Both the position numbers and the translations under genes were made by a program. The notes under the pieces were generated by a model. The model did no database searches, was not told where the DNA came from, and saw nothing but the letters and a program-made list of their open reading frames with translations. Of a stretch of DNA of 64,000 bases, positions 39,652-55,416 are shown piece after piece (position 1 is the stretch's first letter; each line of letters starts with the position of its first letter). This stretch comes from an uncultured Gammaproteobacteria bacterium (GTDB lineage Bacteria; Patescibacteriota; Patescibacteriia; Magasanikbacterales; UBA922). The stretch is from positions 144,192 to 208,191 of the forward strand of contig CAYSXR010000001.1 in assembly GCA_964435035.1 (NCBI GenBank), in the 5' to 3' direction.

Positions 39652-39746
39652 AATCAGTGCCAAGTATAGCGTATTTTTGCTATTTTGCAAGATAGAGGGG
39701 AAAAGTGTATACTTACCGTTACTTTATCGTATACCTAATCGTTTAT

Positions 39747-40187
39747 ATGGACACTGAATTCTCATCAACCAGAAAAATACCAGTCGTTATGTGGATTGTT
39801 TTAGGAGTAGTATTGGTCTCCGCCATTGCATTGGGAATATGGGCATTCCGTCATAAGGGTGAGATTTTGCCAGGTGGATTTGGTGGTACGAATGATTCAG
39901 GAAGTGCAACTACCCCTGTTCTCACGGAAAAAGAAATTAAAGATCGGTATGTGGCGTCACTTACTGCGATCGCGACCGAAGTTCAGACAATGAATGTTAC
40001 AAGTCAGGCTGAACTAGTAGAAAAAGTAGAAGAGAAACTGATGGAAGTTCGGGTACCAGGTGAGCGGAGAGATCTGTTTATACACACATTTTTAGCAATT
40101 GGAAAATTACGAGAGACAGGAGAGAATAGTGATGTGCTCAAAACAAAAATTCTGCAATTAATTAACTCATTGCGTACATCAACATAA
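39747..40187 (+). CDS. Hypothetical membrane-anchored protein
   Basis: One TM helix (VVMWIVLGVVLVSAIALGIWAF) followed by a helical domain. Start taken at the internal ATG 39747. Confidence 0.55.
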   Translation: MDTEFSSTRKIPVVMWIVLGVVLVSAIALGIWAFRHKGEILPGGFGGTNDSGSATTPVLTEKEIKDRYVASLTAIATEVQTMNVTSQAELVEKVEEKLMEVRVPGERRDLFIHTFLAIGKLRETGENSDVLKTKILQLINSLRTST

Positions 40188-40212
40188 GTTCTTGGTTGAT
40201 TGAGAAGTAGCT

Positions 40213-40968
40213 ATGAATAAAACGTTTACTATCAAAATAATTTCATGGCTTCTGCCATCGGTGGTACTTCTTGTTATTTTATTATTTCCCGATCTTTTTG
40301 TTGCACTCCTTGCGAGTGCAGTATGGTTTGGGTACATGGCGTATGTAGCAATCGTGTACCGGAGCCAGATTTATGAGCTACTTACCCAAGTCTTCACCAT
40401 GTTTTCACTGTTGTGGCTTCTGTTTCTGGTAGAGTCGTTGACCCTTCGGTGGTTTTTGGTCGGCATCTCACTTCCATTTTTCTTCTTTTTGATCTGGATG
40501 AGCTCAGAGCTTACGGGGATGCTCGTGCATATACAGGAGAAGCCGCTTCGCCGTATACGCATGATGATTCATGTGTTCAATATGTATGCAGGATGTCTTG
40601 CGTTATTTGCGGTAAATATTTTTTTTCCAGGAATTCCGTTTGTGGCTGTTGCAGTGATTGGAGGAATGTATGCGGCAATCATCTCATTACTTATTTGGAA
40701 ATTATATTTCAAAGTACCCATTCGTGAATTTGCCTTGCCTCTTCTTGCAGTATCAGTCGGTGTGACCGAACTTATGTGGGCATTGCATTTGATGCCATTT
40801 GGATATCTCGCACAAGGGCTGCTCGTGGTATGGGTATGGTATATATTACAGCTCTTAGTTCGTTTTCATCGAAGTCCTCGGGGAATTGTGTGGAAAGAAC
40901 AGGCTATTTTTTTGGGTATCAACGCTGTATTATTTATGTCAGTACTTGCATTTATTCGCTGGGTTTGA
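40213..40968 (+). CDS. Polytopic integral membrane protein, hypothetical
   Basis: 251 aa with about 7-8 hydrophobic helices and no recognised motif. Confidence 0.6.
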   Translation: MNKTFTIKIISWLLPSVVLLVILLFPDLFVALLASAVWFGYMAYVAIVYRSQIYELLTQVFTMFSLLWLLFLVESLTLRWFLVGISLPFFFFLIWMSSELTGMLVHIQEKPLRRIRMMIHVFNMYAGCLALFAVNIFFPGIPFVAVAVIGGMYAAIISLLIWKLYFKVPIREFALPLLAVSVGVTELMWALHLMPFGYLAQGLLVVWVWYILQLLVRFHRSPRGIVWKEQAIFLGINAVLFMSVLAFIRWV

Positions 40969-41016
40969 GAAGTTTAGAGTAGTTTAGGTTAATTAGAATA
41001 ATTTGTATTAATTTGT

Positions 41017-42069
41017 ATGTCCCATCCTCCACATCTACCACTTCCTGAAAAAGATTCTTCAATACAGGTGCAACAGCAGAGGATGTTTGTCATACTGGTA
41101 AATGTGGTATTATCTCTTGGTGCAGGGATAGTTGGGGCACTGAGTGTATTCGCGTGGATTATTCCTGGCGGGTATATAGATGGTGGAGTATTAGTTTCTA
41201 GAGGACAATCTGGATTCAATACTGCTGTATATAATGAGCCAGAAATTTCAGTAATACGAAAAGTGAAAAATGTTACTGCTGATGTATTTCAGAAAAGTCA
41301 GATTCTTCCGAATGGGTATTATGGAAGTGAGGCGCAAGTTGGTAGTGGTGTGATGCTTACCTCTAATGGGTGGGGGGTAGTGTATGCTCCACAATTAGTG
41401 AGTGCAGGAACAATTCCCGCACTCACCGTGCGAGATGCTCAGGGTGTGTGGTACACACCAGACATGGTAGTTGCAGATAAAGAAAATGGACTCGTGTATT
41501 TCAAACTCACGGGAAACGAATTTTATGTAACGACTTTTCCTGATTGGCGGACCCTTGCAACGGGAGGCGAAGTTTGGACTTTTACCGGACGTGAATGGAG
41601 AGGTCGAGTCTTAGGAGAAATGGAGCCTGTTTCAGATGAGATGGTGTTTGCTGCGGTAGACGAACACACTCGATTTAGGTTGTCTCCGGTGAGTACGATA
41701 AATACGGGCACCGTTATTTCAGATGCAGGAGATTTTATTGGATTTAGTGATGCAAATGGAGTATTGCATGATGCATGGATTATTGAATATTCAATTCCAA
41801 AATTACTCGAGTTGGGTGTAATCGAAAAAGCAGAGATAGAGTGGAAAGGTTCGATAGTCGAAGCAATGGAAGAGGGAAAATTAGTCAAAGGATTTTTGGT
41901 TGATCAACCAGGGAAAACAACGGTGAATGGGCTCAAGCGGGGGGATATTGTACGTGCAGTTAATGGGACTCCTGTTACTGAAATGAATCTCTATCGTCTA
42001 GTGAGGGAAACACCACTAAACGCGACGATATGGAGAGATGGGCAAGTTTTTGATATACTAGTACCGTAA
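41017..42069 (+). CDS. Membrane-anchored PDZ-domain protein with degenerate trypsin/HtrA-like region (tentative)
   Basis: TM helix, then GSGVMLTSNGWGV resembling the HtrA N-lobe. C-terminal PDZ-like LKRGDIVRAVNGTPVTEMNLYRLV. No clear GNSGGP catalytic Ser motif. Confidence 0.5.
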   Translation: MSHPPHLPLPEKDSSIQVQQQRMFVILVNVVLSLGAGIVGALSVFAWIIPGGYIDGGVLVSRGQSGFNTAVYNEPEISVIRKVKNVTADVFQKSQILPNGYYGSEAQVGSGVMLTSNGWGVVYAPQLVSAGTIPALTVRDAQGVWYTPDMVVADKENGLVYFKLTGNEFYVTTFPDWRTLATGGEVWTFTGREWRGRVLGEMEPVSDEMVFAAVDEHTRFRLSPVSTINTGTVISDAGDFIGFSDANGVLHDAWIIEYSIPKLLELGVIEKAEIEWKGSIVEAMEEGKLVKGFLVDQPGKTTVNGLKRGDIVRAVNGTPVTEMNLYRLVRETPLNATIWRDGQVFDILVP

Positions 42070-42070
42070 G

Positions 42071-42183
42071 TAAATTCAAAACTTAAATCTCAAAATTCAA
42101 AACTGGAATTCAAAATTCCGGGAGATGAAAGTTTTAAGATTTAAGTTATAGTTTTGAACTTTGAGTTTTACATTTTGAATTTA
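42071..42183. repeat. A/T-word intergenic repeat (family C, copy 1)
   Basis: Built from aaattcaaaac / cttaaa / gttttgaac words. Shares the exact 20-mer gttttgaactttgagtttta with 61816-61835 and the 16-mer aaattcaaaacttaaa with 51673-51688. Confidence 0.6.
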
Positions 42184-42220
42184 ATATATTATTTCCATCA
42201 CTATTTAAACTTAGTCTACT

Positions 42221-42832
42221 ATGGACCTCCCCATGACTCATTCACCAATGAAACGCCTCGCCAGATCAAAAAAATTGCTTATTGCGGTCGGAATACTCTG
42301 TGGATTGATTGCGGGAGGGGCAACATTAGCATTTCCACTCAAATATCGGGCAGACGCACAGGTTTATATTCTTTCTCAGGCACGTTTTGGAGTTGATCCC
42401 TATACGGTTGCAAAATCAGGAGAACGAATTGCCGAGAATTTGGCACAGATCATGAAGACCGAAGATTTTTATGAAAAAACAAAATCAGAAACCAGCTACG
42501 CAGTAGACTGGAGTTATTTTGAAAACAAGACGCTAAGAGATCGAAAAAAAATGTGGGAGAAAACAATTGATCCAGCGGTAGTGTATGGATCAAGCGTGCT
42601 CACGGTAAGCGCGTATCACGAAGAACCTGCACAGGCAATCGCAATTGCAGGTGCAGCAGCGACTGCTCTCGTCACCAAGACAAGTGAGTACGTAGGTGGT
42701 GATGTATCGATTCGATTGGTGAGTCGCCCTATCGCGACACAGTTTCCGGTAAAACCAAATCCACTCGTGAATGCATTTCTGGGAGCCGGAGTGGGAATAC
42801 TTTTTGCGGCTCTGCTATTACTTAGAAAATAG
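42221..42832 (+). CDS. Wzz-like polysaccharide chain-length determinant (PCP) protein
   Basis: 203 aa with an N-terminal TM after KRLARSKK. The C-terminal proline motif PVKPNPLVNAFLGAGVGILFAALLLL is typical of PCP TM2. Confidence 0.7.
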   Translation: MDLPMTHSPMKRLARSKKLLIAVGILCGLIAGGATLAFPLKYRADAQVYILSQARFGVDPYTVAKSGERIAENLAQIMKTEDFYEKTKSETSYAVDWSYFENKTLRDRKKMWEKTIDPAVVYGSSVLTVSAYHEEPAQAIAIAGAAATALVTKTSEYVGGDVSIRLVSRPIATQFPVKPNPLVNAFLGAGVGILFAALLLLRK

Positions 42833-42848
42833 ATATTAATTTTTTTCT

Positions 42849-43172
42849 ATGCCTGGTCCGCTTTATTTTACTGATGAATATATTCGGAAACTGTTGGTAG
42901 AAGAATCGATTACATTTTCAGAAGCTGAAAGCAGGGTGTATATCCCGCGTTTTGTTGCACTGATAGAAGAAAAACTGGGTGGCGTACTCATGGAAAAACT
43001 CACTGATGCTCAACTTACTGAATTCGAAAAGCTATTTTCAGATGCACAGACTACTGGAGAACAGTGGAAAATATTTTGGAACAAAAGTATTCCGAATTTT
43101 TCTCTGTTTGTGGAGGAATACTTGCATAGCTGCACCGGAGAACTCAAAGGGCTTTTGAAAAATAATGTATAG
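42849..43172 (+). CDS. Hypothetical protein
   Basis: 107 aa, helical, first gene of a tightly packed three-gene unit. Confidence 0.55.
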   Translation: MPGPLYFTDEYIRKLLVEESITFSEAESRVYIPRFVALIEEKLGGVLMEKLTDAQLTEFEKLFSDAQTTGEQWKIFWNKSIPNFSLFVEEYLHSCTGELKGLLKNNV

Positions 43173-43377
43173 AGGTATGTCGCAGATGAAAGATTTTGGT
43201 GTACAAAAATCAACCCTGCATGAAGCGGATGTGCTTCTTGGTGAGTACGAAGAATTAATGGTAGAAATTAGGGATTTGAAAAAGAAAGCGATGCGTCTAT
43301 ACTCGGAGGTAGAGAAAGACCAGAATAAATCAGAAGTCGTACAAGCTCTTGGAAAAATTTTAGAAATTCCTGAATAA
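43165..43377 (+). CDS. Hypothetical small coiled-coil protein
   Basis: 70 aa. Its start overlaps the upstream stop by 8 nt (ATGTATAG), suggesting translational coupling. Confidence 0.5.
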   Translation: MYRGMSQMKDFGVQKSTLHEADVLLGEYEELMVEIRDLKKKAMRLYSEVEKDQNKSEVVQALGKILEIPE

Positions 43378-43399
43378 ATTATTTTTTAAATCTGTGTGT

Positions 43400-46240
43400 A
43401 TGGTAGCGATATCCCCCGAACAATCAGTACCGCAAGAATCACGAAAGAAAAAAACACCTGATACGGTAAAAATAGAGAAATATAGTGAGGTGTGGGAGCA
43501 TGCAAAAAATCTGGAGGGTAAAATAAAAAAACTCAAAGAACATGCAATCGATGCGGATGAAATCGGAGAAATAGAAGGTATTCTCAAAGATGCAAAAGGA
43601 TATTTTTCTAGATTTGGAGAGAAAAAAGATAAAGGCAGAAGTGTTGCTCAGCTTGAAGAGAGGCGTAAGGCTGCAGTAGAAAAACTTACTGACCTTAATC
43701 GGCGCATGGTGTCGATGCTTGAAAAATTAGGACAACCAATTCCTAATACTCTTTTGTCGTACAAAGACAGTGGATTTGTTGATATTGTAAAAGAATCTAA
43801 TAAAGAAGGGTTGTCTGAAGAAAAAAAAGAAGAAGTGTCTGAAGTTGTGGGTGCTCATATAATTCAGCCCCCTGAAAATTATTCTAAAGAGTCATTGGGT
43901 GATTCAGAAATTGGTGGTGTGAATAGTATCGAGGCGCCAGAGAAGAAGGAAGAAGTGTTGGTTTCTGCCGAAGAGTCGCCTGTAAATGTACGAGAGGAAT
44001 CATCCTCACCTGAAACACCAATAGAAGATGTTATCAAGATTTCTTCAGGAGGAAAAACATATGAATTCGGCTGGCACGAACAGGTGGTTTACACTACTGC
44101 AAAGGGTAAGCAGCTTGAGTGTATTGTGCTTGGAAAATCAAATGATGAGAATAAGCCGGGGCTTATTTTGAAAGATCTTGAAAAAGGAAAAGTATTTGCT
44201 CTTGGTGCAGATGCGGTTGCAAAACGGGTACATGTTTCTGATGGTGAAATAGTTTCTCCACGTGTAGAAAATAATAAGGCCGATTCTGGTCAATCTGCTG
44301 AAGGTGAAGATATTGATAGAGAAGAAAAAGCTGCTCTTGAAAAAATGAAAAAAGACCAGAGGGAAGTAGAAGAGAAAAAAGCTCAAGAATTAAGTGAATT
44401 ATTAGCACAAGCTGGAAAGTCTGCCGAAGATGACACTTCATTTGTACACACAAGCACAGATGAGAGGGGAAGTTTCGATCAGAAGATGGTTGATAAACTT
44501 GTAGCTGATGGATCGATTGAAAAAATTAACACGTTATTGAAAAATAAATCCGAGGTGTGGGTACAGGAAGATGGTAAATGGTATCAGGGTGTAGTGCAAG
44601 ATATTACCGGAGCACAGGTGGGTGTTACTGTAGGAGAGGAGGGTCGAGAGAAAAAATATTTCTATGTGGATGCTGAAGAATTTTTGGGCATGCAGGATCG
44701 AGCGAAAAAATTGTTGAAATACAAAAAAGAATTAGAGCTTCCCTCGGTGGTGGTGGACACCGAATTCCTCGCTCGTCCAGATACGATCACCAAAGGTGAA
44801 ATTTTTACTCCTCCGACCGAGAGAAAGACCGTACCTGACGTGCCTCTAGTGAGTATTGATACTCCATTGCCGGTACGAGAACGAAAAACCTACCCAGAAG
44901 TTTCAGAAAAAAAAGCAATACAGATGATTCAATCAGTCGCTGAAGAATTTGAAAAAACATGGAAAGGAATGCGCATGATGACGACAGAAAAACAAAAGAC
45001 CGGATGGCTCCAGAGTAAGGAAGTTGAACGAGAGATGACGGTGACAGAAAAAAAGGAGCAATTAGAAGCGTGGCTTGATATGGTGGAGCAGGCATTTGAT
45101 TCACTCGACAAGCAAAAAGATGGGACACACATGGAAAAACCAGTACTCATGTGGCATCAGGCACAGGCATTAATTCGCGCATTAGAAAATGAACTTCGGT
45201 ATACAGAAGAAACGAATAAAAGTGAAGAGTGGGATCACGCACTTGAGGCTTTTAGTAGTATAATTAATGAAAGAAGCACACGTCTCAAGGAAAAAAAGAA
45301 AGGGTCATTGATTGCACCGTGGGCCATGAAAACGACACTTGCTGCCTTGGGTGCTTTTGCAATCGGAAATGCAACAAACAATCGAATAGAAGATGTGGCT
45401 GCAGTGAGTGAACGATATATGGAAGCAGGTGAAAAAAAATATGAATTACCCAGAGAAGAACATACGGGTGATGCACAGAGAAATATGCTAGATTTTGTAA
45501 TTAATATGAATCGGATGATAAACGAGCCCACACTTTCGATAACACCCGTTGCAATTGATGCTCGACTTACTCCACAGATCAAGGATAAAATATCAGGGAA
45601 AGTTCCGGGTTTGGCTGGTGCAGAAATAGCATCTGATGGAAAATCAGTTACATTGACTTTTGATAATAACCAAACAGTTGAAAGTCGTCCTGAAAAAATA
45701 CAAAAGTCGGGTCGCGATAGTTGGAAACTGAAGACAGCTGAGAAAAAGGGTCCGGAGTATGGCGAACAAATGTTGAGAGAATTAAGGAAAGTATTGGGTG
45801 AAGTAAAGCAAGAGTTTCCTGATATGTTTCGTGGACCAGAATCATCTTCCAAGCAAAAGAGAGTAGTAAGAACAGTAGTACAGGCCGAAAAGAAATTACG
45901 AGAAGCAGAGGTAGTAATACCGAGAAGTGGTGAGGCGAGAAGACAGTTGGAACAAGTAAAACAGGTGTTGGAACAAGTAAAACCAGGACTCGAATCTATT
46001 TCAAAAGAGATTGTAGATGAGATTAAGGCAGAGGATCTCGAATTGCCACAGGATGTATTTGTGCGTTTTAGTCGAGAGGTTACGTTTGATCCAAAGGCAG
46101 ATGCTCTATTTGAGGAATGGGGAAATGCACGAAATTCTCTCAAAGCAGCACAGGAAGCAGGAGATCAAGAGGGGGTAAAGAAAAGTAACGAGGAGTTGCG
46201 TAAGGTTATTGAAAAAATAACGAAAGAGTATAGTAAATAA
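43400..46240 (+). CDS. Large charged hypothetical protein with two SH3/Tudor-like beta segments
   Basis: About 946 aa, rich in Lys/Glu coiled-coil-like stretches, with one central hydrophobic segment (TTLAALGAFAIGNA). ATG 43400 preferred over GTG 43394. Confidence 0.6.
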   Translation: MVAISPEQSVPQESRKKKTPDTVKIEKYSEVWEHAKNLEGKIKKLKEHAIDADEIGEIEGILKDAKGYFSRFGEKKDKGRSVAQLEERRKAAVEKLTDLNRRMVSMLEKLGQPIPNTLLSYKDSGFVDIVKESNKEGLSEEKKEEVSEVVGAHIIQPPENYSKESLGDSEIGGVNSIEAPEKKEEVLVSAEESPVNVREESSSPETPIEDVIKISSGGKTYEFGWHEQVVYTTAKGKQLECIVLGKSNDENKPGLILKDLEKGKVFALGADAVAKRVHVSDGEIVSPRVENNKADSGQSAEGEDIDREEKAALEKMKKDQREVEEKKAQELSELLAQAGKSAEDDTSFVHTSTDERGSFDQKMVDKLVADGSIEKINTLLKNKSEVWVQEDGKWYQGVVQDITGAQVGVTVGEEGREKKYFYVDAEEFLGMQDRAKKLLKYKKELELPSVVVDTEFLARPDTITKGEIFTPPTERKTVPDVPLVSIDTPLPVRERKTYPEVSEKKAIQMIQSVAEEFEKTWKGMRMMTTEKQKTGWLQSKEVEREMTVTEKKEQLEAWLDMVEQAFDSLDKQKDGTHMEKPVLMWHQAQALIRALENELRYTEETNKSEEWDHALEAFSSIINERSTRLKEKKKGSLIAPWAMKTTLAALGAFAIGNATNNRIEDVAAVSERYMEAGEKKYELPREEHTGDAQRNMLDFVINMNRMINEPTLSITPVAIDARLTPQIKDKISGKVPGLAGAEIASDGKSVTLTFDNNQTVESRPEKIQKSGRDSWKLKTAEKKGPEYGEQMLRELRKVLGEVKQEFPDMFRGPESSSKQKRVVRTVVQAEKKLREAEVVIPRSGEARRQLEQVKQVLEQVKPGLESISKEIVDEIKAEDLELPQDVFVRFSREVTFDPKADALFEEWGNARNSLKAAQEAGDQEGVKKSNEELRKVIEKITKEYSK

Positions 46241-46261
46241 CATTTTGATATAGAGAAGAAA

Positions 46262-46297
46262 AATCACTGATAGCAGTCGGTGATTTTTTGTTTTTTT
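46262..46297 (+). terminator. Rho-independent terminator
   Basis: aatcactga-tagcag-tcggtgatt hairpin, then ttttttgttttttt. Confidence 0.75.
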
Positions 46298-46416
46298 AAG
46301 GTGTTTGGGCTAGAAATGTGCTAAAAAGTATGAGAGTAGTCAAAAGGGGCTACACCCTTTACTTTTTGTCAAAATTTGCATAAAGTACGTTAATGCTTAT
46401 TGTGGCAGGGGTATAC

Positions 46417-46445
46417 TTGACAAAAAGGTATAAATATGCTATAGT
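46417..46445 (+). promoter_or_regulatory. Consensus sigma70-type promoter (TTGACA-17-TATAGT) driving the GC-rich island
   Basis: acTTGACAaaaaggtataaatatgcTATAGTac is near-identical in layout to the promoter at 63780-63808. Confidence 0.7.
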
Positions 46446-46655
46446 ACTGCGTTATTTCAAAAGCCCTACATAGGTCTTCGAAATAGCAATCCAGGGGCCC
46501 CATCAGAGAGGATATGTGTCCCTTCTGATGGAGTCCCTGGTCTAGGAGCTCCCACTGTGGCCCGTTCGGGCAATAGTGAGAGCCTTAGGCTCATTACAAT
46601 CGAAGAAGCTAGAACACGTGCCCCTATGAAAGGGGTGTAAACGAGGAGATCAGAA
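46446..46655 (+). promoter_or_regulatory. Structured 5' leader of about 200 nt
   Basis: Nested helices ccaggg[ccatcaga...tctgatgg]ccctgg, gcccg-tt-cgggc, gagcc-tta-ggctc, and cccct-atgaa-agggg just before SD gaggag. No known riboswitch recognised. Confidence 0.45.
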
Positions 46656-48104
46656 ATGATTGACCGCAACAAGAAGAGCAACAAGAAGAGCACGCCCGTG
46701 AAGGGCGGCGCTGCGGCGAACCCGCAGGCGATGGCAACCGTGGCGTCTCACAAGGACGACACGGCTCAGATCGATGTGGTGGTCGAGACCAATCCCGAGG
46801 CCGACAAGGTCGAGGGTGAGGTCAAGGCCGATGAAGAGGCGAAGGTCGAAGAGACCGTCGCCACCGCCCCGACCGAGAACGTCGAGAAGAGCGAGGAGCC
46901 GGCCGTTGTGGTCGACCCCGAGCCCGAGCTCGAGCAGAAGCGGAACTTCCGTAAGGAAGACCTCCGCCTCCGGTACAACGACAACCCGCAGGTGCTGCTC
47001 ACCTCCGCGGATCTCAGCGAAGAGGACAAGGTCCTCATCGGCGAGATCGCGAGCGAGCAGAACCAGGTCGTCCGCGACTATGCCGCGCTGGCACAGGAGC
47101 TGACCGACGAGAAGGACCAGCTCGAGCAGAAGCTCGACGCGACCAACTCCAAGCTGGGGAACGTCACCAACCTCATCGCGACCACGGTCAAGGAGACCGT
47201 GGGACAGGTGGACAAGGAGACGTCGGCCTTGATCGAAGGTCTGAAGATCGAGATCGAGGGCGTCATCGGCAAGGGTAACGGCGTGAAGAACGCCGTCACG
47301 AAGATCGGGGACGATGTCAACAAGGACATCGGCTCGCTCAAGGGTCAGGTCAACGCCAACGCCAAGTCGGTCAACGACAAGGTCGATGGGATGGCCGCGA
47401 TGCTCGGGAAGATCGACGAGAAGATCTCCGAGATCAAGTCCCCGCCGCCCCCGCAGCAGCCGCCGGCTCAGTCCAGCACCACCCCGTCCTCCGGATCCTC
47501 CGGGTGGCCGTGGGTCGTGGCCGTGGGCATCTTGCTCGCGGCCGTGATCGCGGTCTTCCTCCTGAACAAGGATGTGAAGATCGAGGTCCAGGTGCAGCAG
47601 CCGGCGGTGAACACCGTGAAGGGTGTGGTGCCGCCGGTGGTGGACAACGCTCTCGGGGTGACCTCGCAGCAGGTGACCCCGGGTGGACCGGGGAATCCGA
47701 TCGTGCCCACGGTGGTCGGTGCCACGTCCGAGGATCCCTGCAAGGGGAAGGTCGGTGGGGAGCTCGGGTCGTGTGTCCTTCAGCTGGAGAAGTTCCGGCC
47801 GAAGGGGTTCACTGATGCGCACTGGAACACGGTCGTCGAGACCTTCCAGAACGTCATCATGGTCCCCTTGAGCGTTCCGTTCAAGGACATCAAGCACCAC
47901 GACAAGGCCATCGAGCACAACATGAGGAAAGACGCGGCACTGCAGGCGTGCGTCGACGCATACGTCTTGAAGACGGATGATGTCGAGTCGAACGTCCGGT
48001 GTCAGCGGGCGGTCGATTGTCTGTTCACTTCGGTGGACGAGGCAGCACAGTGCTACATGACGCATACGCGCTCGATCACGGGCGTTTTGGTCACTGTCAA
48101 CTGA
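46656..48104 (+). CDS. Bitopic membrane protein: acidic coiled-coil N-domain, Pro-rich linker, TM, Cys-containing C-domain (island gene a)
   Basis: 482 aa with an SD upstream. TM helix WPWVVAVGILLAAVIAVFLL. Seven Cys residues, all C-terminal to the TM. Extreme GC3 codon usage (AAG/GAG/GAC/AAC/ATC). Confidence 0.75.
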   Translation: MIDRNKKSNKKSTPVKGGAAANPQAMATVASHKDDTAQIDVVVETNPEADKVEGEVKADEEAKVEETVATAPTENVEKSEEPAVVVDPEPELEQKRNFRKEDLRLRYNDNPQVLLTSADLSEEDKVLIGEIASEQNQVVRDYAALAQELTDEKDQLEQKLDATNSKLGNVTNLIATTVKETVGQVDKETSALIEGLKIEIEGVIGKGNGVKNAVTKIGDDVNKDIGSLKGQVNANAKSVNDKVDGMAAMLGKIDEKISEIKSPPPPQQPPAQSSTTPSSGSSGWPWVVAVGILLAAVIAVFLLNKDVKIEVQVQQPAVNTVKGVVPPVVDNALGVTSQQVTPGGPGNPIVPTVVGATSEDPCKGKVGGELGSCVLQLEKFRPKGFTDAHWNTVVETFQNVIMVPLSVPFKDIKHHDKAIEHNMRKDAALQACVDAYVLKTDDVESNVRCQRAVDCLFTSVDEAAQCYMTHTRSITGVLVTVN

Positions 48105-48119
48105 ACCTCAACCCAACTA

Positions 48120-48145
48120 GTCCGACCTCCCTCGGGAGGTCGGAC
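48120..48145 (+). other. Intercistronic GC hairpin
   Basis: gtccgacctcc-ctcg-ggaggtcggac forms a perfect 11-bp stem between island genes a and b. No T-run, so probably not a full terminator. Confidence 0.5.
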
Positions 48146-48159
48146 ACAGGAGAACAGAC

Positions 48160-49095
48160 ATGAAGCAGCTCGTCGCGAAGATCGTGGTTTATTACATCGT
48201 ACTTCTCTCGGCGTCGGCCTTCGGCTCGACGCCGAACCCCGGTGACCAGTTCGACCTGATCCAGGGAGGGATCCCGGCGAAGGTCGAGGTCACGCAGCAG
48301 GAGATCAAGGCGATGGACACGTCCATCGACCAGCTCCTGAAGCGCACCGGCGGTCTCCTCAAGAAGGACGCCGAGCTCAAGAAGGAGCTCGAGGACCTCA
48401 AGAAGGAGCTCGAGGACCTCAAGAGCAAGCTCGACAAGGTGGTGAAGCCGGGTGATCTCACGGTCATCCGAGTGGATCTGGGAAGGTTGTGGACGCAAGT
48501 CAACAACCATGGACAGCGCCTCACCGAGCTCGAGCAGGACGTCGAAGATCTGAAGAGGAGCGACAAGGCTCAGGACGATCGACTCGGTGATCACGACCAG
48601 AAAATCGAGGACATCAACAAGCGCCTCGATCGAGGTCTCGGAGTGAAGTTCGGCATCGGAGCCTATGGCGTCTACGGGACGCAAGGCTCGATCAACGGTG
48701 GAGCTTCGGCTCGGCTGAGGATCCCGCTGTCCGGTGGATGGCAAGCGATCGTCAATGGCGGAGTCGGCGGCAACCATCAGGGAGCTTCAGGATTCGCCGA
48801 TCTGTCGGTCGGCTACCAGTTCGCGAGCGGCATCTACCTGGGGGCAACCCTCGGTATCGACGCCAACTGCGACGGTATGTGCACCAGGCTCCTCACGGAG
48901 ATCTGGGGCGCAGGTCCCGACATCGGCTACCTGTCCGACGATGGACTCTTCATCCGGGCTCGTGTGCTCTTCGGGAGCGAGTGGATCAAGGGTCCGACGA
49001 TGCAGATCGAGTACCCGGATCGTACGGTCTTCAAGACCGACGAGTCCCGGGAGTTCGGCATCTCGGCTTTGATCCAGCTCGGTCACGAGTTCTAG
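48160..49095 (+). CDS. Signal-peptide protein with coiled coil and C-terminal OMP-like beta-barrel ending in Phe (island gene b)
   Basis: 311 aa with signal peptide ..LLSASAFG and heptads ELKKELEDLKKELEDLKSKLD. The last 150 aa or so have alternating Gly/aromatic beta-strand patterns and end ..ALIQLGHEF. Confidence 0.7.
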   Translation: MKQLVAKIVVYYIVLLSASAFGSTPNPGDQFDLIQGGIPAKVEVTQQEIKAMDTSIDQLLKRTGGLLKKDAELKKELEDLKKELEDLKSKLDKVVKPGDLTVIRVDLGRLWTQVNNHGQRLTELEQDVEDLKRSDKAQDDRLGDHDQKIEDINKRLDRGLGVKFGIGAYGVYGTQGSINGGASARLRIPLSGGWQAIVNGGVGGNHQGASGFADLSVGYQFASGIYLGATLGIDANCDGMCTRLLTEIWGAGPDIGYLSDDGLFIRARVLFGSEWIKGPTMQIEYPDRTVFKTDESREFGISALIQLGHEF

Positions 49096-49346
49096 ACTTC
49101 AAGATTCGGGGAGTGTCTCTACTCCCCGGACCCCTCACCTCGCCGACTTCAAGGCAGAAGGGATAAGACAATGAGACAAACACTCGAGTAAACGGCGTGG
49201 TCGCACAACGCGGCCCCCAATACTGGAGCATGGGCGATATTTCGAAAGAAATGTCGCCCCTCGCACAGCGTATATCAGTCTCTGGTATGCGATGACGAGA
49301 AAAGCATCTCACGTAAATCCCGACTAAATCGGGACACGTGACAAGC

Positions 49347-49375
49347 TTGACAAACGAGAGTATTTATGCTATACT
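49347..49375 (+). promoter_or_regulatory. Consensus sigma70-type promoter (TTGACA-17-TATACT)
   Basis: gcTTGACAaacgagagtatttatgcTATACTaag, located inside an AT-rich spacer of the GC-rich island. Confidence 0.7.
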
Positions 49376-49498
49376 AAGCTGTTACAAAATAAAGAAGTGC
49401 CATGGGAAATCTCGATGTAGTCGGGGTATCTATGGTAGATCGTCATGCACTGCATGGTGGTCCATTGAACCTTACAATATATGCGAAATGTATAAAAA

Positions 49499-49543
49499 GC
49501 TTGAAAGGCTAGAAAGGCCGGAAAGGCTTGAAATGCTAGAGAA
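49499..49543 (+). repeat. Five tandem 9-nt repeats (GCYNGAAAG) in a 5' leader
   Basis: gcttgaaag gctagaaag gccggaaag gcttgaaat gctagagaa. Confidence 0.75.
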
Positions 49544-49551
49544 CGTATCTT

Positions 49552-49677
49552 GTGACGTGAAGAAAGAAATTTTCAATAAGAATTTTTTCTTAGCGTCACG
49601 AGGAGTTCTCAGGCGTGAAAACTTCTCGTGTGGTACACGAGGAAGCAACAACAAAACCCCGATTGAATCGGGGAGGA
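49552..49677 (+). promoter_or_regulatory. Leader with mutually exclusive hairpins and a hairpin abutting the SD
   Basis: gtgacg...cgtcac hairpin. cttctcgtg (49622-30) can pair with cacgaggag (49597-605) or with cacgaggaag (49636-45). ccccga-ttgaa-tcgggg overlaps the 5' edge of SD ggaggag. Confidence 0.45.
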
Positions 49678-49685
49678 GAAGAGTC

Positions 49686-51452
49686 ATGAAGAAGTTCAAC
49701 AAGTTCCTGTTCGTCGTCATGTTCATCTCGTTCGTCGCGGCCATCACGGGCTGCGCCGATCACGGTGGCGAGACGGTCGTCGTCAAGGGTGACGATGGGG
49801 AGAGCGTCAAGCTCTGCCCCGAGGAGCATCAGTGCTCCTCGGCCGAGTTCTGCAACTCGCAGGGTCTCTGCGTCATCCCCGGTGCCAACGGCACCAACGG
49901 CGAGGACTTCGAGCGATGCTCGAATAGTCGTGGTGACTGTGTCGGTAACGAGCTCTGCAACTCGCAGGGCGTGTGTGTGCTCGAAGGTCCGCAAGGGCCG
50001 GCGGGGGAGTCCTGTACCGTGTCGACGAAGGTCGACGGGTGCTTCTTCCTCTACTGTGGCGCAAGCGTCACGGAGATCTGCGACGGCGAGGACGGTGTGT
50101 CCTGCACGGTCGCAGGGCAGCCGGACGGCAGCGCTCAGGTCGAGTGCTCGGACGGTTCGTTCGCGACCATCCTCCCCGGACAAGACGGCGAGGACGGTCT
50201 CAACGGCACGAGCTGCACGGCCTCGACGGTCAAAGGTTGCCTCGTGGTGACCTGCGGAACGCAGTCGACGGAGATCTGCCCGGAGGATCTTCCGGATCCC
50301 GAGCCGGTCGACGGCTGCCAGAAGGACTCGGACTGCACGGACGGCAGCGAGTGCACCAACGACATCTGCGATCTCAACACCGGCACCTGCCGGTACGTGT
50401 CGCAGGTGTGTGATGACGGCGTCGCCTGCACCAACGACTGGTGTGACACGAACGGCTACTGCCGTTCGACCGCGGACAATGATCAGTGCAGCGGCGGCGA
50501 CTTCTGCTTGCCGACCGGTTACTGGTTTTGGTCCTCGGCGGTGGGTTCTGAGGAACTCGCTGACGGAGGCTGTTACGAGTGCCGCTGGGACTCTGATTGT
50601 GCCGACGGCGACGCGTGTACGGTCGACACCTGCGACGCGGGTGTTTGCAAGAAGGAAACGCGCGAGTGCCCCACGGGTGCGACGTGCGTCGAGTACTCGA
50701 GCAACTACTACGACGACTCGGAGTGGAACTACGTGTGCCAGGACAATCCGTCGTGCAGCAACAACAGCCAGTGCGACGACGGCAAGTACTGGACGACGGA
50801 TGCGTGCGTGGCCGGGGAGTGTGTCTACACCCAGGTGTCGTGCAACGACAACAACGCATGCACCGTGGACACGGTGAACTCGAGTGGGCAGTGCACCTAC
50901 GCCCAGATCTCGTGCGACGATGGCAAATCCGCCACGGTCGACACGTGCTCTGCGAATACGGGGTGCGTACACACGCCGGTGAACACCGGCTGCGAGCACG
51001 ATCTCGATTGCGATGACGTCGACGGTACGACCACGGACCTGTGCGAGGACAACGGGAGCTGTACACATACTCCCAATGCCCAGTGCAAGTCCCTGACGGT
51101 CAAGGTCGGCTGGGCCATCCTGTGGTCGCGCGGTCCCGAGATCGGAACCACCAATGTCCCGATGGGCAACTGGCGTAGCTGCGAGGAAGACGAGGCGGAG
51201 AACTGCCGTACCATGTCGTGGTGCGGTGACGACATCGTGGAGTTCAATGTTCAGCAGATGCCGAACGTGGCAGGTGCCGACTGGCTCGTGAAGAACGAGA
51301 AAGGCGACAGCCCTTGCACGTCGAACGCAGATGCGACCTTGAACTACACGCCCGCTGATCTCTTCGTCGGGGCGACGCCGGTGCAGAAGGGCTGTTCGCT
51401 CTTCTGCGACCCGAACGGGTACACCAACTACACCTGCGATTCCGCGGAGTAG
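49686..51452 (+). CDS. Cys-rich repeat lipoprotein (island gene c)
   Basis: Start MKKFNKFLFVVMFISFVAAITGC (lipobox) follows SD ggggaggag. Repeats of the form C.(D/N)D.C....G.C, resembling Dictyostelium-CTDC-type units. The ORF-track start at 49338 was rejected. Confidence 0.75.
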   Translation: MKKFNKFLFVVMFISFVAAITGCADHGGETVVVKGDDGESVKLCPEEHQCSSAEFCNSQGLCVIPGANGTNGEDFERCSNSRGDCVGNELCNSQGVCVLEGPQGPAGESCTVSTKVDGCFFLYCGASVTEICDGEDGVSCTVAGQPDGSAQVECSDGSFATILPGQDGEDGLNGTSCTASTVKGCLVVTCGTQSTEICPEDLPDPEPVDGCQKDSDCTDGSECTNDICDLNTGTCRYVSQVCDDGVACTNDWCDTNGYCRSTADNDQCSGGDFCLPTGYWFWSSAVGSEELADGGCYECRWDSDCADGDACTVDTCDAGVCKKETRECPTGATCVEYSSNYYDDSEWNYVCQDNPSCSNNSQCDDGKYWTTDACVAGECVYTQVSCNDNNACTVDTVNSSGQCTYAQISCDDGKSATVDTCSANTGCVHTPVNTGCEHDLDCDDVDGTTTDLCEDNGSCTHTPNAQCKSLTVKVGWAILWSRGPEIGTTNVPMGNWRSCEEDEAENCRTMSWCGDDIVEFNVQQMPNVAGADWLVKNEKGDSPCTSNADATLNYTPADLFVGATPVQKGCSLFCDPNGYTNYTCDSAE

Positions 51453-51669
51453 TCGTACCCACAAACATTTCGTGTAAAAGCTTTGAGTAGCCTAGCTACC
51501 AGACTCAAAGTTCAATCAACGTAGCGGGAGGGGGCACAAGCGTTCATCTGAATTGCGCAAGCGATTCAGTGACGAGTGCCTCCCTCCCATTCCAACATAT
51601 CTTTATCAAAATTCAGAACTCAGATTACAGTGAGAGACTAGTGAGTATTGGTAGAGAGATGTGGGGATG

Positions 51670-51727
51670 GAAAATTCAAAACTTAAAACTTAAAACTCAA
51701 AATTTAGATTTAAGTTGTGAGTTATTA
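51670..51727. repeat. A/T-word intergenic repeat (family C, copy 2) inside the GC-rich island
   Basis: gaaaattcaaaacttaaaacttaaaactcaaaatttagatttaagttgtgag. Confidence 0.55.
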
Positions 51728-51795
51728 CAAACCCTTTCCATCATTATGATGGTTTCAATTCCCCTCAACCGCGACGACAGAAATGTCACGCGCGG

Positions 51796-51821
51796 AAAAA
51801 ACCCGCGCATGCGGGTTTTTT
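51796..51821. terminator. Strong bidirectional terminator
   Basis: aaaaaacccgc-gcat-gcgggtttttt. Confidence 0.85.
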
Positions 51822-51913
51822 AAATTCCATTACCTCGGGTATATCGTATAATGATGGTATATCTATGGTAGAGGAATTCTACACGCCAGTTCACAAAAAC
51901 CAGGAGGGGACAC

Positions 51914-52651
51914 ATGTTGGGTATGACGTTTCGTTTGTTTGTTTTCTGTCTCACCGTGTTCACCGCCGCATGCATCGAGGATATGCGGCGGGAGGAAGCG
52001 TCCATGGTCCAGGTCGATACGTCGACTGGCATCATGGATATGGTGGAGGAAGTCAAAGACGTACCAGATTCACGGGTCCGTGATCGGTATGATATCGAAT
52101 TTCCTCCTACAGCCGACGAGTGTGTCGTCGATGAATTCATCGCAGAGGGAAGCCCTTGCGATGATGGCGATGCATGCACGATCGATGTCTGTATCCAGGG
52201 CATGTGTCGTAATCGAGCTATCGACTGCGACGACGGAAATCCCTGGACGGATGACGAGTGCATCGTCGACACTGGGGCGTGCTCCAGTGTACATCGGGTG
52301 ACTCATTTCACCGTTCGCGCGGAGCGTCCGGGAAAGGTGAAGCTTTGGTATGGGAATCACACCGAGCCAGAGACCTATCCCATGAACTCGAGCTTCGAGA
52401 TCCAGAAGATGGATCTCTGCGTCGAGAACCGTGTGCTCACGCTCGCGGTAGAGGACGAAGAGTTCCCGGGAACCTACTGGGGTTGTAACCCTGGCCTTCC
52501 TTCGAAGAGGGAACTCGCAGTCGAGATCGACGGGGTGGACACGCCCGGTTATTTCGCTGCGGATCTCGGATGGGAGGTGCCCAACTCTGCGTGTGGTGGG
52601 AAGGGAGAGGGTGACCTCTACTTCTTGCGGGCGCAACTCGCATGTGACTGA
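51914..52651 (+). CDS. Small Cys-rich lipoprotein sharing the C-terminal domain of gene e (island gene d)
   Basis: SD aggagggg upstream. Signal peptide ..LTVFTAAC. Two Cys-rich units (CDDGDACTIDVC, CDDGNPWTDDEC). The C-domain motif CNPGLPSKRELAVEIDGV matches CNPGFPSKSTLTVMVNGV in gene e. Confidence 0.7.
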   Translation: MLGMTFRLFVFCLTVFTAACIEDMRREEASMVQVDTSTGIMDMVEEVKDVPDSRVRDRYDIEFPPTADECVVDEFIAEGSPCDDGDACTIDVCIQGMCRNRAIDCDDGNPWTDDECIVDTGACSSVHRVTHFTVRAERPGKVKLWYGNHTEPETYPMNSSFEIQKMDLCVENRVLTLAVEDEEFPGTYWGCNPGLPSKRELAVEIDGVDTPGYFAADLGWEVPNSACGGKGEGDLYFLRAQLACD

Positions 52652-52739
52652 TGACCGGGTGTCTCGCGAAGGATAGGATGGCGTATACGCTATGCTGTCC
52701 ACCTTCGCGAGCACCACTAATTCAACAAATAGAATTATA

Positions 52740-52768
52740 TTGACAAAATACTCTTTTCCTGATATGTT
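52740..52768 (+). promoter_or_regulatory. Putative promoter (TTGACA-17-TATGTT)
   Basis: The -35 is consensus and the -10 is weak. A leader of about 220 nt follows, with the long hairpin ctagagg..ccctctag (52881-52946). Confidence 0.45.
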
Positions 52769-52998
52769 GATACGATTGTATCTACGCATATCGGATATCT
52801 AGAGAGGTATCTGGTATGCGCCACTGGAGAATCATTCTCAAGTGTGTATGTTCATTATAATCACATAAGTTTTTTGTTCAGCTAGAGGATGGGTGCAGAT
52901 AGAGGTATATGTAACATATCTTGTATCGATAGCCACCCTCTAGCTGAGACACAGTGTCACTGCTGGAGTTCAACGGCCTCACAACGGAGGAAGGCCAA

Positions 52999-55041
52999 AT
53001 GCGTCTGAAGAACAACAACAACCGGATGTTCATCATCACGGTTGCCCTCGCCATGGGGTTCATGGCGGCGTGCACGGAACACGGCGGCGACGAGCCGATC
53101 GTGGTCGTGATGAAGGCGGACCTCGACCTCGACGAGGTCCCCAACAACGTCGACAACTGCCCGGGGGACAACAACCCCGATCAGTTGGACACCGACGGCG
53201 ACGGCATGGGCGATGCGTGCGACAACGACGTCGACGGCGACGGGGTCTTGAACCCCGCCGACAACTGCCCCGACAACTTCAACCCCGACCAGGCGAACCT
53301 CGACAAGGTCCTGGCCGACAGCGGCAACGTCACCGTGGTCGCGGATCTCTTCGGAGACGTCTGCGACAACGACGACGACGGCGACGTGGTCTGCGACCCC
53401 TGGCTCGGCGTGGACGGGTGGGAAGAATTCCATCCCGGTCAGGGCGAGACGTGTCAGGGCGAGGACAACTGTCCCGACGTCGCCAACGCCGACCAGGCGA
53501 ACCTCGACAAGGACTTCGAGGGCGACGTCTGCGACAACGACGTCGACGGCGACGGCGACCTCAACGGCGCAGACAACTGCCCGCTCGTGACCAACGCCGA
53601 CCAGGCAAACCTGGATCGGGACGACTGGGGCGACGCCTGCGACACCGACGACGACAACGACAGCTTCTGCGACGAAGCTGCCCCCGTCTCGATGCCGCGA
53701 AATGCGCCCGCGATGCCCCTCTGCGAGGGCGAGGACAACTGCCCCCGCTTCAAGAACGCGGGACAGGAAGACATGGACGAGGACGGCATGGGCGACGTCT
53801 GCGACGACGACTGCGACGGGGACCTCTACCCCGAAGCGTCGCCCTGGGATTTCCCCAACCTGTCGTGCTTCGTGTATTGCAATCCGGAAGGTCCGGGAAC
53901 CGAGTGCGACGACGCGAACACGTGCACCACGGACACCTGCAACGGGCAGGGCGTTTGCGAGTACGTGTTCACGCAGTCCGAGACGTGCGAATGCGTCTTG
54001 GACTCCGACTGCGAGCCGACCGACGCCTGCGTCACCGAGATGGCGTGCGTGGAAAACACGTGCGTCGAGACCGGATGGAAGGTCCTGACCGACGGGGACA
54101 ACTGCACCATCGACACCTGTGATCCCTCGACCGGCGTGGTCACCCACGTCGAGAAGGACTGTGGTGGGGACCTCTGCGGAGGAGGCCTCTCGTGTAACCG
54201 CATGACCGGAGAGTGCAGCACACCCGTGCCGCAAATTCCGATCAACGACAGCAACGCCTGCACCACCGACGCGTGCGATCCCGAGACCGGCGTGGTCACC
54301 CACGTCGCGATCGTCTGCGACGATGGGAACGCATGCAACGGCACCGAGACGTGCAACCCGGCTTCCGGGTGCGTCGCGGGTACGCCGCTCACGTGCGATG
54401 ACGGAAGCGTCTGCACGATCGACAGTTGTTCGGCAAACACCTGCCAACACGTGGCGGTGACGACGAACGACAACAACATGTGCACCACCGACACCTGCGA
54501 TCCCGAGATGGGGGTGCAGCACACGGCGGTGGTGTGCAACGACGTGAACTCCAACACCACCGACACCTGCGATCCGGCGACGGGTTGCGTGCACACGCCG
54601 ACGGGGAACTGCACGGTCAACGCGGATTGCAACGACAGCAATCCCCTGACCTACGACACCTGCGTCGCGCTCGTCTGCCAACATGTGGAAGGTGTCCGCG
54701 TGCAGGTCTCGTCGACCGACACGTCGGAGACCTGGCAGGTCAATTTCTACTACAACGGTACGACGATCTCCGGCAACCTGCCCTTCGACGGGACCTTGCC
54801 GAAGACGCTCGCATGCAGCTGGGGCGCCGACATCGCCGTCAACCGTCCGAGCACGAACTTGTTCTTGGACTGCAACCCGGGGTTCCCCTCGAAGTCCACC
54901 CTGACCGTCATGGTCAATGGTGTCACGAAGGCGAACGACTTCCAGGTTCGTTCGCAGGCATGCGACGGCGCTCCGCCGGGCAACCTGTGGCTCTCCGACG
55001 AGAGCGGTGACAACGACCTGGGATGCCCCGCGGCACCCTAG
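52999..55041 (+). CDS. Lipoprotein with thrombospondin-type-3-like Ca-binding repeats and Cys-rich repeats (island gene e)
   Basis: SD ggaggaagg, then MRLKNNNNRMFIITVALAMGFMAAC. Repeated DNCPxxxNxDQxDxDxDGxGDxCDxDxDGD units, then repeated CxxDxCDPxTGxxH units. The mature N-terminus CTEHGGDE resembles CADHGGE of gene c. Confidence 0.75.
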   Translation: MRLKNNNNRMFIITVALAMGFMAACTEHGGDEPIVVVMKADLDLDEVPNNVDNCPGDNNPDQLDTDGDGMGDACDNDVDGDGVLNPADNCPDNFNPDQANLDKVLADSGNVTVVADLFGDVCDNDDDGDVVCDPWLGVDGWEEFHPGQGETCQGEDNCPDVANADQANLDKDFEGDVCDNDVDGDGDLNGADNCPLVTNADQANLDRDDWGDACDTDDDNDSFCDEAAPVSMPRNAPAMPLCEGEDNCPRFKNAGQEDMDEDGMGDVCDDDCDGDLYPEASPWDFPNLSCFVYCNPEGPGTECDDANTCTTDTCNGQGVCEYVFTQSETCECVLDSDCEPTDACVTEMACVENTCVETGWKVLTDGDNCTIDTCDPSTGVVTHVEKDCGGDLCGGGLSCNRMTGECSTPVPQIPINDSNACTTDACDPETGVVTHVAIVCDDGNACNGTETCNPASGCVAGTPLTCDDGSVCTIDSCSANTCQHVAVTTNDNNMCTTDTCDPEMGVQHTAVVCNDVNSNTTDTCDPATGCVHTPTGNCTVNADCNDSNPLTYDTCVALVCQHVEGVRVQVSSTDTSETWQVNFYYNGTTISGNLPFDGTLPKTLACSWGADIAVNRPSTNLFLDCNPGFPSKSTLTVMVNGVTKANDFQVRSQACDGAPPGNLWLSDESGDNDLGCPAAP

Positions 55042-55226
55042 AACTTCTCCTGCGACGACTGCAGGAGCATCTCGAAGTGAACGTGTGATTCGCTTCTGTA
55101 GGTGAATGTTCGAAGACAATCACACAAACCGGGGGAAGTGCGCTCGCTACTACAGCGACCGCTTCCTCCCCTCTACTCTGAATTCAAGTACGATCTTGAG
55201 AATAGAGTAGAAGGGCACGCTAGAAT

Positions 55227-55248
55227 AACCGCACTATGCGGTTTTTTT
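55227..55248 (+). terminator. Rho-independent terminator at right edge of island
   Basis: aaccgca-cta-tgcggtt followed by ttttt. Confidence 0.8.
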
Positions 55249-55253
55249 GTTAT

Positions 55254-55355
55254 GTCATTCCGAGCGAGTGCACCCGAGCCGAGGAATCTTTCCTGTATAA
55301 GACCATGTAAGAAAGATTCCTCGACTCCCTCGGAGACTCGGTCGCTCGGAATGAC
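55254..55355. repeat. Palindromic MITE-like element (family D, solo copy)
   Basis: Perfect 14-bp termini gtcattccgagcga / tcgctcggaatgac and inner 13-bp inverted repeat cgaggaatctttc / gaaagattcctcg. Its arms match the arms of the copies at 61107 and 61583. Confidence 0.75.
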
Positions 55356-55416
55356 TATCGTCACTTTTTCTTTTTTTAATTTCCCCCTTGCTTGTGATAT
55401 ACTTATCTAGAATTTT

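Follow-up and report, generated by a model that had tools for sequence, protein, structure and literature searches.

Gene b and its homologs

Within a 64-kb window of contig CAYSXR010000001.1 (64,000 nucleotides, the whole stretch of DNA analyzed here), we studied gene b (48160-49095, + strand), which encodes a 311-aa protein predicted to consist of a signal peptide, a helical domain and an 8-stranded outer-membrane-type barrel. The gene belongs to a sharply bounded, GC-rich island (46460-55100, +) of five genes, designated a to e. A first-pass annotation of the window, made from the letters and their open reading frames (ORFs) without database searches, had singled out gene b as an outer-membrane-type protein in a genome that otherwise looks monoderm-like. 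An AGGAG ribosome-binding site (48148-48152) stands 8 nt 5′ of the ATG of gene b, and upstream of it, within the 55-nt spacer between a and b, the sequence holds a GC-rich hairpin without a T-run (48120-48145, +).

The signal peptide of b (48160-48225, +; residues 1 to ~22) is of the signal peptidase I (SPase-I) type and carries no lipobox. It combines lysines K2 and K7 with a hydrophobic core of 14 residues and a cleavage site made of small residues (ASA/FG), and the other family members possess canonical AQA or ASA sites. Residues 3-23 are the sole hydrophobic 19-mer in the protein, and no further transmembrane helix is present. The cleavable signal peptide that had been proposed for this ORF is thus borne out by the Sec/SPase-I features of b and its relatives.

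A search of 5.8 billion proteins returned four homologs of b with 91-42% identity, and an exhaustive HMMER search of 1.84 billion cluster representatives with a profile of the barrel alone added two more; four further matches to this profile were repeat or low-complexity noise and were discarded. The family thus counts seven members in total among ~15 billion proteins, all with a common architecture and an intact ORF (7/7). Every member with visible context sits in the same Magasanikbacteria locus. A homolog of a immediately precedes b in all six homolog-bearing contigs, and a c-like gene comes next where the contig continues; gene c follows b in loci L086, L085 and L004. Since the homologs share their architecture, the order a-b-(c) is conserved and the barrel half evolves with a ratio of nonsynonymous to synonymous substitution rates (dN/dS) of 0.15-0.5 (Nei-Gojobori), gene b is confirmed as a real and conserved gene.

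Outside this locus the family is elusive. No relative was found in 185,579 GTDB species representatives by a family-specific scan resting on two short peptide patterns, in the JGI metagenome contig collection, or in 2.9 million IMG/VR viral contigs, and no homolog in a diderm context appeared in any collection searched. The negative result in the GTDB representatives is explained at least in part by the contig of a related metagenome-assembled genome (MAG), DAORJA01, which stops inside gene a. The stretch concerned in this GTDB representative MAG (L087; DAORJA010000012.1, GCA_035438805.1) is 10001-11169. When full-length b was compared with Pfam, NCBIfam, PHROGs and PADLOC, coiled-coil noise alone was obtained, and matches to SMC, Rad50, tape-measure, LmuB and XhlA proteins were dismissed as compositional. 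Single-sequence and profile searches of PDB sequences gave no meaningful match to b, and the profile search retrieved no outer-membrane protein.

Predicted structure of the barrel domain

The barrel domain of b (48646-49092, +; residues 163-311) was modeled with AlphaFold2 (AF2) as the domain only, from a 7-sequence input. The resulting model (predicted local distance difference test, pLDDT, 89.5; predicted template modeling score, pTM, 0.78) has eight antiparallel strands, at residues 163-173, 178-189, 194-205, 208-220, 225-237, 244-258, 263-284 and 289-310, connected by turns of 2-6 residues. The modeled barrel is closed, antiparallel and all-next-neighbor, with the N- and C-termini on the same side. 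Its strands are 11-15 residues long, and strands 7 and 8 form a 22-residue hairpin. Foldseek searches against PDB and viral models gave almost exclusively outer-membrane barrels; the closest structural matches were OmpW, NspA, TtoA, OmpA, OprF-N, Ail and OmpX, and phage-encoded outer-membrane barrels matched with a probability of 1.0 and TM-scores of 0.5-0.56. A C-terminal beta-barrel of ~150 aa, as the first-pass annotation had read this region, is therefore supported by both the closed 8-stranded model and the OmpW/OmpX-type structural matches; structure prediction had been put forward there as a check, and it gave a closed barrel.

The residue pattern of the strands is two-sided. In seven of the eight strands, one face consists of I/L/V/A/F/W and the other is rich in Gly and R/D/E/N/Q/S. 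The non-hydrophobic face comprises ~25% Gly, very few Lys, and paired Arg and acidic residues, and each strand has ~5 hydrophobic positions with Tyr, Trp or Phe at their borders, which would correspond to a belt spanning the membrane. Most invariant residues belong to the Gly/polar face, and within b conservation is greatest among the residues of this presumed interior face. Strands 7 and 8 reach past the hydrophobic belt as a conserved polar hairpin (…EWIKGPTMQIEYPDRTVFKTDESREFG…), adjoined by a CDGxC loop between strands 5 and 6 that is present in 5/7 members.

The C-terminus of b had also been taken as the classical signature recognized by the β-barrel assembly machinery (BAM), a claim that fared less well. 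A terminal aromatic residue stands at the extreme end of five of the seven members (HEF in three, YWF in one, RWF in one), so it is not invariant: one member ends with …GRSL, and another continues after …FGYKW with a 29-aa acidic C-terminal extension. Protein b itself ends with …LGHEF and has Gly at -4; the beta-signal consensus has Gly at -6. A BAM signature at this C-terminus is suggestive at most.

The helical region

Between the signal peptide and the barrel, b contains a helical domain (48268-48627, +; residues ~37-156), the variable, recombining part of the protein. AF2 placed helices at residues 37-63, 69-92, 97-137 and 146-156 (pLDDT 60-80), with the first three modeled as an antiparallel bundle and a low-confidence linker with helix 146-156 after it. 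The helix breakers G64 and P97 are invariant across the family, and on this basis we read the modeled region as a folded helical domain plus a linker and not as one Lpp-like rod.

An Lpp/coiled-coil-like stretch had been noted here, and this description does not hold. The quoted segment, ELKKELEDLKKELEDLK, is encoded by a strain-variable 21-nt tandem repeat (48357-48434, +; ~3.4 copies, one heptad per unit), which falls in the only 150-nt patch of b that is as low as 79% identical to the closest strain, and b has no lipobox.

Other genes, promoters and leaders of the island

Gene a (46656-48104, +; 482 aa), the conserved partner upstream of b, encodes a bitopic membrane protein without a signal peptide. 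Its cytoplasmic N-terminal part of ~283 aa is helical, a single transmembrane helix follows at ~284-306, and the ectodomain of ~175 aa contains 6 Cys. The gene is as rare as b, with only four homologs.

Genes c, d and e all encode probable lipoproteins rich in Cys. Protein c (49686-51452, +; 588 aa) has the lipobox ITGC, 61 Cys and repeats of the Dicty_CTDC type; protein d (51914-52651, +; 245 aa) has the lipobox FTAAC, 14 Cys and a weak Dicty_CTDC match. Gene e (52954-55041, +) was called as 695 aa, though its start is likelier at M16, giving 680 aa. Its adhesin-like product has the lipobox FMAAC, 57 Cys, and thrombospondin type-3 (TSP3) and Dicty_CTDC repeats, with a partial match to the Myxococcus cell-cohesion protein MtsC. 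The relatives of e share similarity at the repeat level only (20-40% coverage) with TSP3 proteins of many phyla, so no donor lineage can be named for it. No phage or defence families were found in the island with PHROGs and PADLOC. Judged from these sequences, the island looks like a cell-surface adhesion cassette.

Three extended -10 promoters close to consensus were recognized. The first (46417-46445, +; TTGACA-17-TATAGT, 11/12 matches, TG present) lies in a host-like AT-rich spacer before a. The second (49347-49375, +) lies in the AT-rich spacer upstream of c and is followed by a leader of ~300 nt, and the third (52740-52768; TTGACA-17-TATAxT, TG), also near consensus, is located in the AT-rich spacer before e. 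The leaders after these promoters measure 180-300 nt, and those of c and e are unlike that of a. The 5′ leader of the a-b unit (46452-46655, +), at the left edge of the island, is highly structured and conserved: its fold reaches -87.8 kcal/mol (z = -6.46), and it is ~90-100% identical over five loci whose flanking proteins are 45-60% identical. No Rfam family was found for the island leaders. With one compensatory pair in 60, the a-b leader is too conserved for covariation analysis, and we regard it as a candidate for a new cis-regulatory RNA.

Opposite the island genes run long antisense ORFs (46650-48065, 49596-51464 and 52957-55119, all on the - strand), a consequence of the GC-rich third codon positions. 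At locus L001 (8467-9987, -), the public gene call took a 506-aa antisense ORF and missed gene a.

Composition and authenticity of the island

The coding GC content of the island is 56-64%, compared with ~40% elsewhere in the window. At third codon positions, the GC content (GC3) of genes a, b, c and e reaches 0.81-0.88 and that of d 0.65, whereas the measured host genes have values of 0.26-0.43, and the codon choice is inverted accordingly: AAG serves for 94% of Lys in the island and 19% in host genes, and ATC for 97% and 19% of Ile, respectively. GC content at second codon positions (GC2) of a and b is host-like (0.37-0.38), so their GC excess lies largely at synonymous sites. All seven b family members have a GC3 of 0.73-0.85 together with AT-rich spacers, and this is kept even at 30-40% protein identity; besides the window, the pattern was seen at L001, L002, L003, L004, L085 and L086. 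Two giant surface proteins elsewhere in the window, one of 1997 aa (21473-27466; LVIVD, fn3, Big_13) and one of 1112 aa (11900-15238; peptidase M23, lamin-tail domain), have normal composition, which shows that the island codon usage is not common to all surface proteins.

The island spacers have 41-47% GC and contain near-consensus promoters and host-type repeat elements. One intergenic repeat family occurs at the right edge of the island (55253-55358) and at 61135-61245 and 61580-61720; a second occurs at 42072-42113, in the c-d spacer (51672-51713) and at 61802-61843. Since such host-dispersed elements occur in and at the island, we consider its spacers native.

The left junction has the gene order IF3 - SmpB - 251 aa - 350 aa - Wzz-like - DUF5663 - large variable protein - leader - a - b, which recurs in L001, L087 and L088; L002 and L003 show part of it. 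The GC profile of L001 shows the same rise, from ~41% to ~60%. In addition, window positions 49097-55344 were recovered at 100% identity in two further samples (L089, L090). An assembly or binning chimera was rejected because the junction recurs in at least five independent assemblies and c-e are 100% identical in two more. The short-read contigs L089 and L090 begin or stop at island edges or repeats. Such islands probably fragment assemblies and escape binning, and are hence under-represented in genome catalogs.

As for the origin of the high GC3, a single horizontal transfer followed by amelioration fails to explain why it is kept at synonymous divergences of ~1, and continued import of alleles from a GC-rich donor or host was rejected, with no homolog found in any non-CPR context (CPR, Candidate Phyla Radiation). 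Selection on synonymous sites, or biased gene conversion tied to high recombination, are the candidates that we retain.

Recombination and selection at the locus

Identity along the locus is strongly mosaic. Between the window (38000-49600) and L001, proteins on the housekeeping side are 87-99% identical, whereas the large upstream protein is 57%, a 46% and b 40% identical. Compared over 45600-49500 with the closest strain (L002), the window is 100% identical up to 46500, falls to 68-77% over the cytoplasmic half of a, returns to 98-99%, drops again to 79% in the repeat patch of b, and reaches 92-100% in the barrel. The stalk and barrel of b also show discordant relationships between alleles. 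From this mosaic identity and these discordant histories, we conclude on sequence grounds that the locus evolves by patchwise recombination and repeat slippage. Mutagenesis by a diversity-generating retroelement was rejected, as the changes come in patches and are not specific to adenine, and a reverse transcriptase is missing from the neighborhood. No silent donor cassettes for a or b were found in the window, where the search recovered just the Cys-repeat families within c and e.

The large protein directly upstream of the island (43394-46240; 948 aa) has host-like composition and is itself hypervariable, being 57% identical in L001 and 1214 aa long in its L087 counterpart, with its last 212 residues 100% identical to the closest strain. 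It matches no Pfam family, and in NCBIfam its C-terminus gives just a weak hit to the XXXCH domain that stays below threshold (E 1e-4).

Host and envelope

The PheS encoded in the window is 94% and 90% identical to those of two Magasanikbacteria-type MAGs and 60-85% identical to those of many MAGs labeled Candidatus Magasanikbacteria or Patescibacteria, and NCBI annotates one homolog of gene a as Candidatus Magasanikbacteria. By these sequence comparisons the host is Candidatus Magasanikbacteria (CPR/Patescibacteria). Many third-party annotation (TPA) MAGs titled "uncultured Gammaproteobacteria bacterium" (L005, L008, L009, L011 and others) have PheS 79-94% identical to that of the window, and their record titles look like taxonomic mislabels.

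The CPR have been placed in a monoderm clade that lost OmpM, S-layer homology (SLH) proteins and porins (bioRxiv 10.1101/2021.05.31.446380). The few CPR with described envelopes are monoderm, and envelope ultrastructure is known for very few of them (PMC8871954). Patescibacteria with diderm gammaproteobacterial hosts are known (PMC13059738). In the 64-kb window, a Pfam scan of gene-like ORFs of at least 120 aa detected no BamA/Omp85, Lpt, Lol, TolC or OmpA-type gene. The monoderm-like appearance of the genome, as first noted, therefore holds at the lineage level through the PheS placement, and the remark that nothing else in the window indicates an outer membrane agrees with the Pfam scan. The remaining window genes are typical of CPR, with few enzymes and many giant surface proteins. 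A tmRNA gene (38776-39173, -) with a long tag peptide, ANLFERAKNTVAKAFSMPSFASVVA, lies beside smpB (39199-39690, -).

Discussion

The reading that we favor, though only tentatively, is that b is a small membrane anchor without a pore, which would insert independently of BAM and act in cell-surface or partner-cell contact. We count the surface and contact context for it, namely the bitopic protein a, the Cys-rich lipoproteins c-e, the partial MtsC match and the hypervariable locus. Also in its favor are the membrane-type strand pattern, the SPase-I signals of the family, the purifying selection on the barrel, the placement of the host in a group published as monoderm, the recurrence of the island junction across assemblies, and the existence of diderm hosts for Patescibacteria. 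Protein b, which carries a Sec export signal and evolves under purifying selection, would be a functional part of a lineage-specific, fast-recombining surface island in a subgroup of Candidatus Magasanikbacteria, and its barrel would fold into a lipid bilayer without BAM as a compact anchor. In vitro, OmpA, OmpX, PagP and other small barrels of 8 strands can enter bilayers unaided by BAM, which makes a producer lacking BAM conceivable. Because this lineage is presumed to lack an outer membrane, the barrel would most plausibly insert into that of a diderm partner. With both barrel termini on the insertion side, the helical domain would, after Sec export, remain with the producer, and the conserved hairpin and the Cys loop would project across the target membrane. 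Were the barrel to enter the producer's own cytoplasmic membrane, the Cys loop would face the cytoplasm, an unattractive outcome; in a diderm partner's outer membrane, the loop would come to lie in the periplasm of that partner. The link from the barrel back to the CPR cell would be made by the helical domain, perhaps gripped by the ectodomain of a. Membrane embedding, BAM-independent insertion, the choice of target membrane and the a-b interaction are the parts of this scheme that we infer.

Several points weigh against an anchor of this kind. No match of b to OMP_b-brl (PF13505), OmpW, OmpA_membrane, Ail_Lom or Porin_4 passed the Pfam gathering threshold, and NCBIfam gave no relevant match. 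Searches of the outer-membrane families had been suggested at the outset, and they yielded faint signals: at E <= 10, the barrel domain matched OMP_b-brl in 2/7 members (best E 0.023) and Porin_4 in 1/7 (E 0.011), all below threshold. The outward orientation of the hydrophobic strand face in the model is something we infer from composition and structural neighbors. Conservation is highest in the loops and the strand 7-8 hairpin, which is odd for an exposed outer-membrane protein and would suit a soluble binding domain. The a-b interaction is suggested by conserved adjacency only. Finally, in the folding of outer-membrane proteins, spontaneous insertion from outside into a native membrane is kinetically unfavorable.

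A more specific version of the anchor can be drawn, and we consider it unlikely as a whole. In this version, the barrel of a CPR episymbiont would insert in trans and without BAM in the outer membrane of its diderm host, like a grappling hook, and the variable helices held by the ectodomain of a would form a cell-cell tether, encoded in a recombination hot spot whose codon inversion is kept by selection or biased gene conversion.

The strongest competitor, possible but doubtful, takes the 8-stranded barrel to lie outside any membrane, as a "knob" that is soluble or attached to the wall, sits on a helical stalk and would be the ligand-binding tip of a surface fibril or adhesin, for which the barrel domains of neisserial surface lipoproteins and hemophilin offer precedents. 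Against it, the best structural neighbors of b are consistently membrane barrels with clearly higher scores, and its strands are long (11-15 residues, with the hairpin of 22). Moreover, the Gly-rich, Lys-poor face with paired Arg and acidic residues fits the interior of an outer-membrane protein and not a solvent-exposed surface, and the conserved polar residues of the hairpin sit beyond the predicted hydrophobic belt.

It is improbable, in our view, that a Magasanikbacteria sublineage has an outer lipid layer and an assembly factor, with b as its divergent small outer-membrane protein or OmpM-like tether. The succession of signal peptide, helices and C-terminal barrel with same-side termini mirrors OmpM/SlpA of diderm Terrabacteria (PMC10628300), and the small number of CPR with known envelope ultrastructure (PMC8871954) leaves room for such a layer. 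Against this stand the placement of CPR in a monoderm clade without OmpM, SLH and porins (bioRxiv 10.1101/2021.05.31.446380), the 64-kb window free of outer-membrane genes, and the lack of SLH or other wall-binding domains in b by Pfam and NCBIfam. A family of seven members in one variable locus is also unlike a core envelope component.

Still less credit can be given to b as an exported membrane-damaging or pore-forming effector against competitor or host cells. The protein is exported, its barrel is of the membrane type, hypervariable loci are frequent for conflict genes, and the helical region has weak XhlA/hemolysin similarity. However, a monomeric 8-stranded barrel with an interior filled by Gly, Arg and acidic residues would leave no obvious lumen, which makes a pore-forming role unlikely; the XhlA and hemolysin matches are sub-threshold coiled-coil noise, and no immunity gene, toxin domain or defence family was found with PHROGs and PADLOC.

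That b is a decaying gene transferred from a diderm, or the island an assembly or binning chimera, is hardly credible: the GC content of ~60% over a 40% background and the repeats of the neighbors, common in Myxococcota-type proteins, would fit, but the ORF is intact and under purifying selection, which also disposes of the relic suggested at first given that the residues of the presumed interior face are the best conserved, the same junction occurs in independent assemblies, the spacers hold host-type repeats and promoters, GC2 of a and b is host-like, and no homolog was found in a diderm context.

Outer-membrane-type barrels are regarded as a hallmark of outer membranes and BAM machinery. 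A barrel kept by selection in a lineage regarded as single-membraned would point to BAM-independent use, to an unrecognized envelope layer in part of the CPR, or to soluble re-use of the fold. If BAM-independent insertion into another cell is true, it would provide a molecular handle on host attachment by CPR. The island is also relevant to the question of what preserves base composition where surface-antigen loci recombine, since its inverted codon usage (GC3 ~0.85 vs ~0.3) is kept across alleles at 30-40% protein identity, with spacers that stay native.

Comparison with known systems

Two identities of b were ruled out on architecture, the anchor of a trimeric autotransporter and Lpp. Trimeric autotransporter adhesins of the YadA type resemble b in having a helical segment, a C-terminal barrel anchor and an adhesion-related context. 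In the YadA anchor, each of three chains supplies 4 strands of a 12-stranded barrel whose pore is crossed by a helix, whereas a single b chain is predicted to close an 8-stranded barrel without room for a helix, and neither full-length b nor its barrel domain matched YadA_anchor in Pfam. Braun's Lpp, like b, is an exported envelope protein with a short heptad-repeat helical segment. It has a lipobox Cys, a trimeric coiled coil of ~56 residues and a C-terminal Lys for peptidoglycan, whereas b has neither the lipobox nor the C-terminal Lys, and its helical region is ~120 residues long with conserved breaks.

Lom-like/OMP_b-brl barrels of Caudovirales match b structurally and are likewise accessory, mobile-looking genes, but b has no PHROG match beyond coiled-coil noise and the island has no phage genes.

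OmpM of diderm Firmicutes and SlpA of Deinococcus share with b a signal peptide, a helical stalk at the side of the termini and a C-terminal barrel, and the OmpM stalk may be extended or compact with helical hairpins (PMC10628300). They carry an SLH domain, whereas neither Pfam nor NCBIfam found SLH or any further wall-binding domain in b, and their stalk is trimeric and their distribution phylum-wide, whereas the helices of b are modeled as an intramolecular bundle and its distribution is extremely narrow. The SlpA barrel has more strands than the 16 of OmpM. The b model has 8 strands, compared with 16 in OmpM (PMC10628300).

In fold class, b is closest to the small barrels OmpW, OmpX/Ail/Lom, NspA/Opa, the N-domains of OmpA and OprF, PagL and TtoA. 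It differs from them by a helical domain of ~130 residues before the barrel, by loops that are all short and conserved instead of long and variable, by a terminal aromatic residue that is not invariant, and by a CPR host presumed to be without an outer membrane or BAM. The fold groups b with OmpW, OmpX, NspA and OmpA-N, and its sequence fits no family described so far. We class b as a new family within the outer-membrane-type barrels, distinguished by a helical N-domain; its host is unexpected and its genomic setting unusual.

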